Source: Phycisphaerae bacterium (GTDB lineage Bacteria; Planctomycetota; Phycisphaerae; WQYP01). Taken from it: a stretch of DNA of 64,000 nt. Position 1 is the stretch's first letter; the number at the start of each line of letters is the position of its first letter. A program made the translations under genes and the position numbers. Shown piece by piece: positions 12,431 through 19,032 of this stretch. The stretch spans positions 1 through 64,000 of the forward strand of contig DATKPA010000021.1 in assembly GCA_035524355.1 (NCBI GenBank), given 5' to 3'. The notes beneath the pieces were generated by a model that saw only the letters and a list, made by a program, of their open reading frames with translations, was not told the DNA's origin and did not search any database.

Positions 12431-12504
12431 TGGCCCGGGCAGGATTTGAACCTGCAGGATCCTGCTTCTGAGGCAGGAATGTCTGCCGTTTGCATCACCG
12501 GGCC
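12431..12504 (-). tRNA. tRNA-Leu(CAG)-like, class-I shape
   Basis: same acceptor (GGCCCGG) and T-arm as 7980-8053; anticodon arm CCTGC-CTCAGAA-GCAGG; variable ATCCT; A73. Confidence 0.6.
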
Positions 12505-13020
12505 AGAACAAACTGCACCAAGGGCGCTGGTCGCAAAGAAACAAAACATATTGGGAGAAAAAAGGCCGCGACCAGCGGGGGGAGTTACCTGTTCATTGAA
12601 TCGCTACCAAGCTGTGGCTGATAGCGTTCGATGACCAGGTCGCGGGAGGCGGTCGCGGGTTTCCCGGCGCTTGTATGGGCGCACAACACGACCGCTATCC
12701 GCTCTCTTGCGGACCATTGCGGTAAGAAGTTGTGCGTAAACGCCGACATTGAAAGAACACCTGAGAAAAGGTCTCTTACAAACAGACAACAAGTGTACCC
12801 ACTCGTTATCGACGATTCCTGCGAATCGCTGAAAGACTATACGCAGGAAGCATGCCAAAGGTGCGGGAAAGGCGCGCATATTTCTTTACGTGCTTTAGTC
12901 TAAACGACTTACACGATATCCGCACCCCACACATGCCTTCTCCCTATCCCCGCAGAACTCCGCATTTCTGATTACTTCGGATACACTTTCTATCCATTAA
13001 GATAGTCCACCTACCACACC

Positions 13021-13058
13021 GCTTCGTGGTCCTTAGTGCCTTTGTGCTCTTCGTGTTT
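13021..13058. repeat. CTTCGTG/CTTTGTG heptamer tandem array
   Basis: gcttcgtggtccttagtgcctttgtgctcttcgtgttt, immediately 3' of rtcR. Confidence 0.5.
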
Positions 13059-13077
13059 CCGTCCTCCCCGCGCGAAA

Positions 13078-14703
13078 TCACTCCGGCCGCAAATCGGACC
13101 AGCTCAACCCAAACCGCGCCAGATACTTCCGCAACCGATCCGCATCATTCGGCGCCTTCTTCTTCGCACGCGACGCCGCAAACAACTCCCGCCCCGCATC
13201 CGACAAGCTCCGCGCCCCCTCGCACACGCGCAGCACCTCCTCCAACTGCACCCGATCAAACCGATCCAGCCCCTCAATCGCTTTCGCAGACAAATGCCGC
13301 GAAAGCACCCCATCCCCCCCACCGCCACTCCCGCCCCCCGTCTTCCACGACGCCGCCAGCGCGAGAATTTCCTCTTCCACCTGCCCGAGCGTAATCCGCG
13401 CCCCGCCACCCCCGCCCGCCAGCGTCGCCATCCGATTGATCGCCGCATTCAGATCGCGGAAATTCCGCCGCCACTCCGCCCCCGGCGACACCGCAAACGC
13501 CAGAAACCGCTCCCGCGCCTCCTTATTGAACGTCACATTGTTCCCATTCACCCGGGCAAACTGCTCCAGCTCGTACGCCACGTTCGGCTCAATATCCTCC
13601 CGCCGCTCCTTGAGCGCGGGCAGCCGAAACGTCCACAAGTTGATCCGCGCAAACAAATCCTCCCGAAACCGCCCCGCCTCCACCTCGACGGAAAGATCCT
13701 TGTTCGTACCCGCAATCAACTGAAAATCGCTCCGCACCTCCACATCCGATCCCACGGGAAGAAATCTCTTTTCCTCGAGCGCCCGCAAAAGCATCGCCTG
13801 CTCGTCCACGCCGAGCTCGCCGACTTCGTCGAGGAACAGGGCCCCGCCGTCTGCCGCCCGGAGAAGGCCGGCGCGCGCGCCAATTGCTCCAGTAAAGGCG
13901 CCTTTCGTGTGACCGAAAAGGGCGGACATTGCCCCATCGCCGCGGATAGTCGCGCAGTTCACCTCCACAAAATTCCCACCGACCTGCCGGCGAAATTTTT
14001 TGAGCTCGAAGATGCGGCGGGCGAGCTGGCTCTTGCCTGCTCCCGTCGGACCCATCAGCAGCAGCGGGGCCTTGCTGTGGATTGCGACCCGTTCGATCTG
14101 CTCGATCAGCTTGTTGAAGGCGGCGTTTCGGGTCTCGATTCCGCTTTTCAAGAACGACAGGCTTTCCGTCTGTTCCACGGCAAAGCGTGAGGCGATCTTG
14201 TCGTACTTCGACAGATCGAGGTCGATGATCGAGTATCCCCCCGCCTCCGAACTCCGTCGGCCGTCTTCGCCGCGCGGCGGCGAGGTCTGCAACAGCTTCG
14301 CAGGAAAGTAATGCGCCTCCGTCAGCAGAAACAAACAGATCTGTGCGACGTGCGTCCCGGTCGTGATGTGAATCAGGTATTCTTCGCGCTCCGGTGCGAA
14401 GGGATATTTTTTCGCGAAATCCAGAAGCGCCGAATAGACCTCCTGGAAATCCCAGGGGTCGTTGAACTCGACCTCGTGCTGCCGGACCTCGGTGCTCGGC
14501 GACACGGTCCGAATATCCTCCGTCACCTGCTCCGCCAGTCGCTGAAACTTTTTCTGGGCGATCAACTCCACGCGATCGACGCACAATTCCTCGTGGCGGC
14601 ACATGGCGACGGTCGGCCGCCAGCGCTGCCACCGCGTCGCCCCACTCCCCGCGTCGACCACCGTTCCCAGCAATCCGATAATGACCTGCTTTTTCTGTGC
14701 CAT
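13078..14703 (-). CDS. rtcR: sigma-54-dependent transcriptional regulator RtcR (CARF sensor domain + AAA+ activator + HTH)
   Basis: 541 aa; N-terminal MAQKKQVIIGLLGTVVD... CARF-like region as in E. coli RtcR, central GPTGAGKSQLARRIF Walker A and GAFTGA sigma-54 contact motif, C-terminal HTH. Confidence 0.85.
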   Translation of the reverse strand: MAQKKQVIIGLLGTVVDAGSGATRWQRWRPTVAMCRHEELCVDRVELIAQKKFQRLAEQVTEDIRTVSPSTEVRQHEVEFNDPWDFQEVYSALLDFAKKYPFAPEREEYLIHITTGTHVAQICLFLLTEAHYFPAKLLQTSPPRGEDGRRSSEAGGYSIIDLDLSKYDKIASRFAVEQTESLSFLKSGIETRNAAFNKLIEQIERVAIHSKAPLLLMGPTGAGKSQLARRIFELKKFRRQVGGNFVEVNCATIRGDGAMSALFGHTKGAFTGAIGARAGLLRAADGGALFLDEVGELGVDEQAMLLRALEEKRFLPVGSDVEVRSDFQLIAGTNKDLSVEVEAGRFREDLFARINLWTFRLPALKERREDIEPNVAYELEQFARVNGNNVTFNKEARERFLAFAVSPGAEWRRNFRDLNAAINRMATLAGGGGGARITLGQVEEEILALAASWKTGGGSGGGGDGVLSRHLSAKAIEGLDRFDRVQLEEVLRVCEGARSLSDAGRELFAASRAKKKAPNDADRLRKYLARFGLSWSDLRPE

Positions 14704-16754: not shown

Positions 16755-16826
16755 TCGCGGGTCGGCCAATTGGTAGGCCAGCGGATTCTGAATCCGCCAA
16801 TGGAGGTTCGAATCCTTCTCCGCGAA
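16755..16826 (+). tRNA. tRNA-Gln(CTG)
   Basis: U1-A72 acceptor TCGCGGG/TCCGCGA, anticodon arm GCGGA-TTCTGAA-TCCGC, T-loop TTCGAAT, A73. Confidence 0.75.
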
Positions 16827-16928
16827 ATTCTGATCTGATGAATCCTTAAAGAGAATCGATCAGCTAATATGGTTCCAGAACGACTTGCGAGGTACAGGAG
16901 GTGGCCCGTGGATTTAAAGGCAAAACAG

Positions 16929-17546
16929 ATGTGGGAAGATTTTTTGAATCCCGAGGTACTCCGATTTCGACTGGCCATCTCGTCCATCTACATCGTTACT
17001 TTTGAAGCATTGAAGGATTCTATTACCGATCACATCAAAACATTTTTTTGGACGGGGTTTGAGGACGGTAAGGAAGTTTTGGACCAAAAGTACGAATCGG
17101 ATGTTCTGAGCCGAAATCGGAGTCCCGTTCATGCCAGCCTTGAGTGGCTCCAAGAACGGAAGGCAATCGATGATAAGGACATCGAATCATTCGTCCGCGT
17201 AAAGGATTGTAGAAACAAGCTCGCCCATGGTTTGCTGAAAGTAGTGACTAAGGATGGCATTCCGTCTGATTTTGAGGAAAGGTTTCAGGAAATGGTCGCT
17301 CTCATGAAGAAGATCGACCACTGGTGGATCATCAATTTTGAAATTCCAATTAATTCTGACTTCGACGGCAAAGAAATTGATGAAGAACAAATCATGTCGG
17401 GACGGTTGATGTCGCTGCTAGTGCTCTACGACATTGCCCTCGGTTCCCCCGAGAAAAGCAGCTATTACCATGACGAGTTTCGCAAGCGGTGCGACGAGAA
17501 CCAAGCGAACACAACTAAGGAAAGACCCGCACATGACGAACGTTGA
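16929..17546 (+). CDS. hypothetical protein with HEPN-like Rx4H motif (RNKLAH), encoded on AT-rich island
   Basis: ORF 16869-17546 (start at MWEDF 16929 preferred); GC ~45% vs ~63% flanks; CRNKLAHGLL fits HEPN R-[N]-x3-H RNase motif; island begins at 3' end of tRNA-Gln and overlaps rtcB start by 15 nt. Confidence 0.5.
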   Translation: MWEDFLNPEVLRFRLAISSIYIVTFEALKDSITDHIKTFFWTGFEDGKEVLDQKYESDVLSRNRSPVHASLEWLQERKAIDDKDIESFVRVKDCRNKLAHGLLKVVTKDGIPSDFEERFQEMVALMKKIDHWWIINFEIPINSDFDGKEIDEEQIMSGRLMSLLVLYDIALGSPEKSSYYHDEFRKRCDENQANTTKERPAHDER

Positions 17547-19032
17547 CTACTACTTCATCCCCACCGGCGAAGCCACCGCCCTCCTCCCCGCTCGCGAAAA
17601 ATCCCTCTCCCCCATCACCGTCATCGCCACCGAAAAACTCCGCAGCACCTTCGACGACCTCTGCATCACCCAGGCCCTCAACTCCCGCGGCGCCCCCGGC
17701 GTCACCGAGCTCGTCCTCAACCCCGACGCCCACTGCGGCTACGGCGCCCCCATCGGCTGCGTCCTCGTCTCCCCCACCCACATCTACCCCGGCCCCGTCG
17801 GCGTCGACATCAAATGCTCCATGTCCCTCCTCCAGACCAACATCCCCGCGCGCGAAATCAACAACCCCAAAATCCGTCGCAACATTATTGATGCCATCCT
17901 CGAACGCGTCCCCACCGGCGCTGGCCGCGGGCAGCGCTCGGTCAAGAAATCGCGCCGTGTATCCGTCGAACAGGGCAAGCAACTCGCCATCCACGGCGCC
18001 TCGCGCGAAGTCCTCGAATCACTCAGCATCCCCGTCGAATGGGCCGCCCGCTGCGAAGACGCCCACCACCTCGGCTCCGATGGCACCACCGACTCCCTCG
18101 CGCGCCGCCTCGACCAGCTCCTCGCCAACCGCGTCCTTTCCAACTTCGAAGAAAAAATCCACCAGCTCGGCTCCTACGGCGGCGGCAACCACTTCGGCGA
18201 AGCCGAAATCGTCAACATCCGCCCCGGCATGGAAAAAATCGCCGACACCTTCGGCCTCCAGAACGGAAACGTCGCCTTCCTCTCCCACTGCGGCTCGCGC
18301 GGCTTCGGCTACCAGCTCGCCAGCAACCAATTCAAAACCCTCCAGGCCCAGTTCGAAAAATGGTCCACCCCCTTCCCCGCCGGCGACAAACAACTCGTCT
18401 ACGCCCCCCTCGGCACCTACGAGGCCGACCGGTACATCGACGACATGTCGCTGGGCGCCAACTTCGCCACCCTCAACCACCTGCTCATCAACGCGCTGGT
18501 TCTCGAAGCGTTTCAGGAAGTGCTGCCGGGAACGAAGGGAAATCTCGTCTACTTCATCTCGCACAACATCGCGCGGCTAGAGCCGGTGAAGAACAGCCCG
18601 CTCGGCATGGCCTGGGTTCATCGCAAGGGAGCCACCCGCGCCTTCTCCGCCGGCCATCCGCAACTCCAGAACACGCCCTTCGCCGCCACCGGCCACCCGA
18701 TTCTCCTCCCCGGAAATCCGCAGGCGGGCAGCAGCGTCATGGTCGCCACCGAAGGCGCACAAAAATCCGCCTACTCCGTCAACCACGGCGCCGGCCGGGT
18801 GAAAGGCCGCAAAGCCGCCATCCGCGAGTTCGATCAGAAGGAAATCGACCAGAGCTTCGAGGACGCGGATATCCTCACCAACTGCCGCCAGTACCCGAAG
18901 GACGAAGCCCCCGCCGCGTATAAGGATTTCAACGAAGTGCTGAAATCCGTTGAGACCGCCGACCTCGCCAAAGAAGTCGCCAGGCTCCGCGCCCGCTTCG
19001 TCATCAAAGACTCCGACAAGGCCGACGACTGA
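17532..19032 (+). CDS. rtcB: RNA-splicing ligase RtcB (3'-phosphate/5'-hydroxyl RNA ligase)
   Basis: NPDAHCGYG, HNIA, VHRKGAT, NHGAGR metal/GTP-binding motifs of RtcB; start at MTNVDYYF (track ORF begins 17434 in AT-rich island). Confidence 0.9.

Follow-up and report, generated by a model that had tools for sequence, protein, structure and literature searches.

The 64,000-nt stretch of DNA analyzed here (the window; positions 1 to 64,000 of the forward strand of contig DATKPA010000021.1 from GCA_035524355.1, a metagenome-assembled genome [MAG] of a Phycisphaerae bacterium) carries the RNA ligase gene rtcB and, overlapping its start, a gene for a small HEPN-like protein. An earlier note on this DNA had read the pair as a possible undescribed toxin/repair or abortive infection module. 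We find that the locus combines elements of known kinds, namely, an operon of the RtcR-controlled Band-7/tRNA/RtcB type, a neighboring long tRNA array (L-array), and, as an insertion, a solo HEPN-like gene. The note was right in proposing that this gene is foreign and HEPN-like, but no conserved HEPN-RtcB system lies behind its position. On balance, it is likely that a known RtcR repair locus with an L-array received the solo gene by horizontal transfer and that the gene became the neighbor of rtcB by accident.

A foreign island occupies a variable slot before rtcB

The HEPN-like gene lies in a low-GC segment of 699 bp (16827-17525, plus strand) between tRNA-Gln(CTG) (16755-16826, plus strand; ARAGORN; Rfam, 60.1 bits) and rtcB (17533-19032, plus strand; 499 amino acids [aa]; Pfam RtcB, 9e-101). 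This island, delimited by its composition and by homology breakpoints, has a GC content of 0.455, with local values of 0.44 to 0.47, compared to 0.609 for the rest of the window. Its borders are marked by two relatives. In the closest, another Phycisphaerae MAG (L007; RtcB 86 to 87% identical from the equivalent ATG, RtcR 89%), homology to the window ends at 16826, the last base of the tRNA-Gln, and resumes at 17526, which is 7 nt before the rtcB ATG. In the second (L089; RtcR 80% and SPFH protein 81% identical), homology ends at 16828. The island is absent from both relatives, and its low GC content and sharp breakpoints mark it as horizontally acquired. The earlier note was right on this point, as well as in placing the start of the island exactly at the 3' end of tRNA-Gln and its size and composition at about 0.7 kb and 45% GC (measured, 45.5%). 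In fact, all features and coordinates that it listed were confirmed upon recheck.

The slot filled by the island holds unrelated cargo in the relatives. In L007, the sequence between tRNA-Gln and rtcB spans 1.7 kb (4572-6249) and contains three to four tandem YrlA-like RNAs, which score 54 to 64 bits, with one at 28, relative to an Rfam gathering score of 69. In L089, tRNA-Gln(CTG) is directly followed by a different AT-rich segment (GC content, 0.39 to 0.49; L089 1-1247, minus strand). It carries an open reading frame (ORF) that continues beyond the contig end (length, at least 363 aa), is unrelated to the HEPN-like gene of the window, and has no match in Pfam or PADLOC. Other loci, L030 and L083 among them, also have variable accessory genes directly before rtcB. 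Judged from these sequences, planctomycete rtc operons have immediately before rtcB a variable cargo slot, which takes up Y RNAs, tRNAs, unknown proteins, and, in the window, a HEPN gene.

The L030 (7370-8158) and L083 (9277-9984) genes, located between the Y RNA region and rtcB, encode homologous unknown proteins of approximately 235 to 262 aa that share the motifs EWIER and EFASQG.GVL.LWR.IAW and may represent another recurrent rtc accessory. In L036, a 354-aa ORF (4703-5767) between rtcR and rsr, the Ro60 gene, resembles by eye an IS630-type DDE transposase; if it is one, this would be a further sign that rtc operons accept insertions. Finally, tRNA-Gln was considered as a classical integration site for the island. 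This was rejected as unproven, since no att-like direct repeats were found flanking the island, no integrase was found, and the tRNA is conserved in L007, L089, and L012.

The HEPN-like gene (16908-17546, plus strand) most likely starts at the GTG at 16908, where AGGAGG is located 6 nt upstream and where the homologues begin. The resulting product of 212 aa equals the NCBI annotation P0001; a longer ORF of 225 aa starts at 16869. As the earlier note had observed, the stop of the gene overlaps the start of rtcB, with the stop codon (17544-17546) lying 14 nt inside rtcB. The last 21 nt of the ORF are native rtcB-flank DNA, and this read-through accounts for both a longer C-terminal tail and the overlap. 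The tail is longer than that of most homologues, with comparable tails in 2 of the 29 aligned. In addition, the island supplies the ribosome-binding site of rtcB, AAGGA. The ORF is intact and of full length and has kept all conserved residues of its family. Within the 699 bp, there is no other ORF, no antitoxin-like partner, and no nucleotidyltransferase (MNT) gene.

The island protein belongs to a large family of solo HEPN-like proteins

The RNKLAH (Rx4H) motif that the earlier note recognized in the island ORF is encoded at 17211-17228 (plus strand), corresponding to residues 115 to 120 of the 225-aa ORF. Across 30 aligned family members, R115, N116, A119, and H120 each occur in 90% of the sequences or more, and E46, W152, W153, N156, and E158 are among the further near-invariant positions. 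In the family, 53 clusters are distinguished at 90% identity; their proteins are typically 198 aa long and carry no Pfam domain. A profile search with the family extended it to at least 1,429 representative clusters (50% identity) at an E value of ≤1e-3, including 987 at ≤1e-10. That R, N, and H of the Rx4H motif hardly vary in a family of more than 1,400 representative clusters speaks for a catalytic role.

Structure prediction and profile comparisons point in the direction of HEPN. The AlphaFold2 model is all helical (predicted local distance difference test score, 91.6; predicted template modeling score, 0.81), and its top Foldseek match in the PDB is Csm6 at a nonsignificant E value of 0.12 (probability, 0.90). 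HEPN proteins occur among the fold matches, but generic helical bundles dominate. Subthreshold Pfam matches of the 30 members include DUF4145 (13/30) and HepT-like (9/30), with HEPN_LA2681, HEPN_MAE_28990, and HEPN_RiboL-PSP in a few. The island protein weakly matches CARF_HEPN and Csx1 in PADLOC, and the family weakly matches Csm6 and Cas13e in NCBIfam, far below the cutoffs. Most of these weak matches converge on HEPN, including HEPN catalytic regions.

The family as such falls into no Pfam, NCBIfam, PADLOC, or annotated PHROG family, and no bridge to an annotated HEPN family appeared among the matches listed in the representative-cluster profile search. Its profile retrieved from the PDB sequences only a spurious match to the Mediator subunit Med22 (E = 0.14), and Foldseek gave no match among viral structures. 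An hhalign comparison with the neighboring Abi_C protein in L001 showed no similarity, which is uninformative because the target is a single sequence. The motif and the convergence of weak evidence make the island protein very probably a member of the HEPN superfamily. The corresponding claim of the earlier note is supported to this extent, although no profile match rises above its threshold. By analogy, the protein would most likely act as a metal-independent endoribonuclease.

It could also be argued that the protein is inactive, being either a helical protein that is catalytically silent or binds a ligand or the product of a decaying passenger gene, in which case the neighborhood would have no RNA-cleavage component of its own. 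This would fit with the lack of a HEPN model above threshold, the generic bundles among the fold matches, the empty comparison with the neighboring Abi_C, and an island devoid of an antitoxin-like partner gene. We nevertheless consider it improbable, given the near-invariant R, N, and H of the motif throughout the family, the full-length ORF with its conserved residues intact, and weak profile matches that converge on the HEPN catalytic regions.

Other family members reside mostly in defense islands and prophages and not beside rtcB

To place the gene in context, nine independent genomic contexts of family members were compared, and neither rtcB nor rtcR lies beside the family gene in any of them. 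Instead, it is found beside Abi_C, PIN, RES, and methyltransferase genes (L001); RelE, MqsA-like, HigB, and ParE genes (L002); SIR2 and RES genes (L087); Mrr and MqsRA genes (L169); and ParE/Phd genes (L170). In L005, it is located on the opposite strand within prophage tail and baseplate genes, and in L006 and one further place, it lies among ordinary metabolic or carbohydrate-active enzyme genes. No consistent partner gene emerged across the nine contexts, and in six of seven loci, the GC content of the family gene does not exceed that of its flanks. These genomic surroundings suggest a solitary, mobile, defense-island gene, similar in habit to single-gene HEPN abortive infection proteins.

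The reverse search gave the same picture. Our comparison set consisted of 160 other rtc loci (2.09 Mb), comprising 80 RtcB-anchored genome loci and 80 RtcR-anchored metagenomic loci. When their six-frame ORFs were searched with the family hidden Markov model, nothing was retrieved at an E value of ≤10, with positive controls scoring 1e-91 to 1e-101. Across the loci compared, the HEPN-like gene adjoining rtcB is therefore unique to one lineage and does not form part of a conserved two-gene system.

These counts bear directly on the dedicated HEPN-RtcB module envisaged in the earlier note, in which the HEPN protein would cut tRNA anticodon loops, RtcB would reseal them, and RtcR would sense the fragments. 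The idea has a sound chemical basis. Cleavage by HEPN RNases generates 2',3'-cyclic phosphate and 5'-OH ends. Such ends serve as RtcB substrates and RtcR ligands, since 5' tRNA halves that end in a cyclic phosphate switch RtcR on (PMC7790460), and in Salmonella, one candidate considered as the trigger of RtcR is a HEPN protein encoded by a prophage (PMC9879122). Moreover, the two ORFs share 14 nt, and no terminator separates them. However, the overlap is explained by the read-through of the tail into rtcB-flank DNA, and the slot cargo of L007 (Y RNAs) and L089 (an unrelated gene) has nothing in common with it. Together with the score of 0 of 9 contexts and 0 of 160 rtc loci, this makes a dedicated module very improbable, and the locus should not be cataloged as one.

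The surrounding genes form a described type of RNA repair operon

The frame into which the island was inserted is an already described one. rtcR (13078-14703, minus strand) encodes a CARF-like sensor fused to a sigma-54 AAA+ activator (Pfam RtcR, 9e-84, and Sigma54_activat, 4e-49; PADLOC RtcR CARF_AAA_HTH, 6e-254). On the opposite strand, it is followed by tRNA-Asn(GTT) (14945-15019, plus strand; ARAGORN; Rfam, 67.8 bits), a Band-7/SPFH gene (15511-16626, plus strand; Pfam Band_7, 5e-30), tRNA-Gln(CTG), the island, and rtcB. The rtcR and rtcB starts are 2.83 kb apart, in line with the approximately 2.8 kb given in the earlier note. An operon type of RtcB, Band-7, and a "Band-7-associated tRNA," occasionally with the tRNA next to Rsr instead, was described by Burroughs and Aravind (2016), at least as summarized in a preprint (bioRxiv 10.1101/312249). 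The arrangement in the window, with rtcR divergent from tRNA/Band-7/tRNA/rtcB, is of this type, which identifies tRNA-Asn, Band-7, and tRNA-Gln as parts of the repair operon. The earlier note had overlooked the known operon type and the membership of tRNA-Gln in it.

The comparison set bears out this assignment. Of the 80 genome loci, 40 resemble the window in having rtcR and the rtcB unit transcribed divergently, and many metagenomic loci share this layout, which was less systematically tabulated there. The distance separating rtcR and rtcB in the genome loci is either approximately 0.2 to 0.4 kb or at least 2 kb. The longer gaps usually carry Ro60 (rsr), which is present in 33 of the 80 loci and is followed by YrlA Y RNAs in several. 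Of the 80 metagenomic loci, 15 have a Band-7/SPFH homologue adjoining rtcR, and 13 of these also contain rtcB. In L089 (tRNA-Lys[TTT]), L110, and L116, the space from rtcR to Band-7 holds a tRNA or tRNA-like gene; this is the position of the "Band-7-associated tRNA," which tRNA-Asn(GTT) occupies in the window.

The two close relatives share the frame to different extents. L089 has the same layout of rtcR, opposite-strand tRNA, Band-7, and tRNA-Gln, with its Band-7/SPFH orthologue (81% identical) in the same place. L007 aligns with the window over the region downstream of rtcR, rtcR itself, tRNA-Gln, and rtcB, and carries rsr at the position of Band-7. tRNA-Gln(CTG) has been kept in the operons of L007 (88% identity) and L089 (86%), and in L012, it is the first tRNA after a Band-7-like gene. 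The L012 operon, divergent from rtcR, consists of rsr, the Band-7-like gene, eight tRNA genes (6488-7575), two YrlA RNAs, and rtcB. All eight tRNAs read CNN codons (Gln twice, Arg twice, His, Pro, and Leu twice), so that every anticodon has G36.

Neither Ro60 nor Y RNAs were detected in the window: the best tblastn match for Ro60 has an E value of 0.31, and Rfam gave no YrlA match in 14700-17550. The two operon tRNAs were also considered as tRNA-like domains of Y RNAs, which was rejected given this lack of a YrlA match and the scores of ordinary tRNAs (60 to 68 bits) for both. Among the genes adjacent to rtcB, which were the only ones examined for this purpose, there is no rtcA; the next ORF (19074-19583) matches nothing in Pfam or NCBIfam, and a Chlam_PMP/cadherin-repeat gene comes after it. 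The coding strand of rtcB and its neighbors (17550-22000) is strongly C rich, with a GC skew of -0.3 to -0.49, giving rise to long spurious antisense or off-frame ORFs, such as 17543-18580 and 19941-22097.

One could imagine that the HEPN-like protein was recruited as an RNA-processing accessory in place of the Ro60/Y RNA module, trimming damaged RNA to cyclic phosphate and 5'-OH ends or amplifying the RtcR signal. Although the window has no Ro60 or Y RNAs while its closest relative carries both, variable genes recur in the same slot, and the gene has stayed intact, this is hardly probable, as Band-7/tRNA operons of the metagenomic loci commonly have neither Ro60 nor any HEPN gene and thus nothing that needs replacing, no second example exists in the 160 loci, and the low GC content with little amelioration fits a recent arrival.

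Probable expression of the HEPN-like gene with the rtcB unit

No terminator-like site was found between tRNA-Gln and rtcB (16826-17533), and no sigma-70-like promoter was found within the island. These two results make cotranscription plausible, and the HEPN-like gene is probably cotranscribed with rtcB. Upstream, a sigma-54-type promoter-like site faces the rtcB unit (AGGCACACTCCTCGCT followed by ATAT; 14838-14853, plus strand), located 92 nt upstream of tRNA-Asn. When approximately 128,000 window positions were scored with a matrix trained on 15 rtcR-divergent promoter-like sites of other loci, it ranked seventh. L007 has a counterpart in the same position (TGGCACGCCCCTCGTT followed by ATAG), and equivalent sites face a tRNA or tRNA-like gene followed by Band-7 in L089, L110, and L116.

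A strong, long inverted repeat followed by a T run lies upstream of Band-7, at approximately 15381-15494 (CACGGAGAGCACGGAGG type). Short related copies are present near rtcR (13022-13069) and inside the tRNA array (12127-12170), and these also match L007 8381-8427. The repeat has the appearance of a dispersed repetitive extragenic palindromic-like element and may act as a terminator within the operon.

The tRNA array and its structured leader lie downstream of rtcR

Directly downstream of rtcR and on the same strand, as previously noted, lies an array of 30 tRNA genes that covers all 20 amino acids (7868-12504, minus strand; ARAGORN and Rfam). It includes a gene for an HNH endonuclease (9954-10574, minus strand; 206 aa from the ATG at 10574; Pfam HNH_5, 6e-18, and HNH, 9e-16; PHROG HNH endonuclease, 9e-30). 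One array gene is a tRNA-Ile with the anticodon TAT (9431-9505, minus strand). Such tRNAs are unusual in bacteria, where AUA is normally read by a lysidine-modified CAT tRNA. In its composition, the array corresponds to the mobile L-arrays described by Santamaria-Gomez et al. (2021; PMC8421152), which have an HNH gene as a conserved companion.

A second sigma-54-type promoter-like site faces this array (TGGCATGCTTCCTGCG followed by TATAGTC; 12842-12857, minus strand), 220 nt downstream of the rtcR stop. It ranks second among the approximately 128,000 positions scored. The L007 counterpart (TGGCACGACCCTCGCG followed by TATAGTC) is located where the good alignment of the two genomes starts, and the array-side and operon-side sites of L007 take ranks 2 and 3 there. 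Between the site and the first array tRNA lies a leader of 337 nt (12505-12841, minus strand) that is conserved in L007 and matches no Rfam family. It folds with a minimum free energy of -126.2, compared to -99.5 ± 4.8 for shuffled sequences (z = -5.6), and the alignment with L007 shows three hairpins that retain their stems while their loops vary.

The adjacency of rtcR and array is documented in the window and in L007 only, the contig of the latter ending after the first tRNA. In L090 (RtcR, 74 to 75% identical), the adjacency is absent and the leader is not shared. Independent support comes from the distant lineage of L150 and L151 (RtcR, 55% identical), where the sigma-54-like site with the best score is oriented toward a mini-array of tRNA-Asn, -Lys, -His, and -Trp, followed by an HNH gene and rsr. 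The HNH gene in this region (L150 1442-3911; L151 alike) is related to that of the window, and a second sigma-54-like site precedes rsr. Approximately 1 kb of AT-rich sequence separates the top-ranking site from the first tRNA.

Conserved sigma-54-like sites on both sides of rtcR suggest that RtcR also drives the tRNA array, and the motifs are consistent with an RtcR/sigma-54 dependence of both the array and the repair operon. In combination with the tRNA mini-arrays with HNH genes in L150 and L151, they lead to the testable hypothesis that bacteria with RtcR express spare tRNA sets upon tRNA damage. If true, the findings on TrcR in Anabaena would extend to a different regulator and phylum.

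DISCUSSION

We favor the following account of the locus. An RtcR-governed Band-7/tRNA/RtcB repair unit is accompanied by a mobile L-array with its HNH gene just downstream of rtcR. A 699-bp piece of low-GC foreign DNA has entered the slot between tRNA-Gln(CTG) and rtcB, where relatives hold Y RNAs or other cargo. The insert provides rtcB with its Shine-Dalgarno sequence and overlaps its start, and the HEPN-like gene would ride on the rtcB transcript. The gene product is most likely a latent metal-independent endoribonuclease of the single-gene defense or abortive infection type, by analogy with HEPN proteins, and its place beside rtcB would be a lineage-specific accident of insertion.

Several points weigh against parts of this account. 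The operon-side sigma-54-like site is weak, scoring 8.8 bits relative to 13.6 to 21.8 bits for the training sites, and the -12 GC of its L007 counterpart reads GT. The inverted repeat and T run at approximately 15381-15494 may stop the transcript before Band-7, so that the site at 14838 is no more than a candidate promoter for Band-7, the HEPN-like gene, and rtcB. As for the protein, none of the curated HEPN models scored above threshold, the best being HepT-like at 16.1 bits compared to a cutoff of 23.5. HEPN cleavage would yield ends that RtcB seals and RtcR senses, and a selected coupling in this particular lineage is possible, but the comparative data give no reason to assume one. Finally, the comparison involves only two close relatives, L007 and L089, both on short contigs.

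A bolder version would have RtcR drive two flanking sigma-54 promoters, one for the leader and the 30-tRNA set and the other for tRNA-Asn/Band-7/tRNA-Gln/HEPN/RtcB; the HEPN gene would be an effector only recently wired into this regulation. We regard this version as doubtful, if conceivable. If true, damage to tRNAs would induce a single regulon that supplies replacement tRNAs, a ligase, and a further RNase, amounting to a tRNA pool reset or a commit-to-dormancy switch. It would also mirror the L-array/rtcB regulon of Anabaena, with an activator in place of the repressor TrcR.

Beyond this locus, the stand-alone Rx4H family, with at least 1,429 clusters and members in defense/toxin-antitoxin islands and prophages, is a candidate new single-gene HEPN defense family. 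With regard to the array, the presence of rtcB in L-array neighborhoods was already known; the link of a tRNA array to RtcR itself is apparently new. In the literature, we found no paper on such a link beyond a discussion remark in PMC10272220, which presents RtcR as the enterobacterial rtcB regulator that Anabaena lacks and does not tie it to tRNA arrays. RtcR is not mentioned in PMC8421152.

Comparison with known systems

The locus resembles the Band-7/Band-7-associated tRNA/RtcB operon type, with which it shares RtcB, Band-7/SPFH, an authentic-looking tRNA, and a divergent rtcR; in L007, the tRNA is combined with Rsr instead. It differs in its two flanking tRNAs (Asn and Gln) and in the foreign HEPN-like gene before rtcB. 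In the Salmonella rsr-yrlBA-rtcBA operon (Hughes et al. 2020; PMC7790460), RtcR, with its CARF-like and sigma-54 AAA+ parts, is likewise divergent from the rtcB operon. L007, with rsr, YrlA-like RNAs, and rtcB, resembles this operon, whereas the window has Band-7, two tRNAs, and the HEPN-like gene in place of Ro60, Y RNA, and an adjacent rtcA.

The array is comparable to the L-arrays of Anabaena, which are also long, cover all amino acids, and have an HNH gene and rtcB nearby. Neighborhoods of L-arrays include rtcB, and array and rtcB are coinduced in Anabaena (PMC8421152); the idea that spare tRNAs and RtcB jointly answer translational stress is common to both cases. The repressor TrcR has been called functionally equivalent to RtcR (PMC10272220). 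In contrast to Anabaena, the host of the present array is a planctomycete, and the array follows rtcR, preceded by a sigma-54-like site and a 337-nt leader; here, the activator RtcR would replace the repressor TrcR.

The island family shares with the abortive infection class of HEPN proteins a size of approximately 200 aa, a stand-alone organization, the Rx4H motif, the lack of a partner, and an occurrence in prophages and defense/toxin-antitoxin islands. That class, which includes AbiD/F, AbiJ, AbiU2, and AbiV, was reportedly delineated by Anantharaman et al. in 2013. The window family has no detectable sequence membership in those families. Unlike HEPN-MNT (HepT-MntA) toxin-antitoxin systems, the island contains no adjacent MNT or other antitoxin gene.

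Finally, a hypothetical HEPN-RtcB pair would find a parallel in metazoan XBP1 splicing, in which IRE1, a KEN/HEPN-type RNase, and RtcB form a cut-and-ligate pathway. The role of RtcB in this process is cited in PMC7790460. There, the cyclic phosphate and 5'-OH ends made by a HEPN-type nuclease are sealed by RtcB, as they would be in such a pair. However, IRE1/RtcB is a conserved, dedicated pathway, and the adjacency in the window is confined to one lineage.

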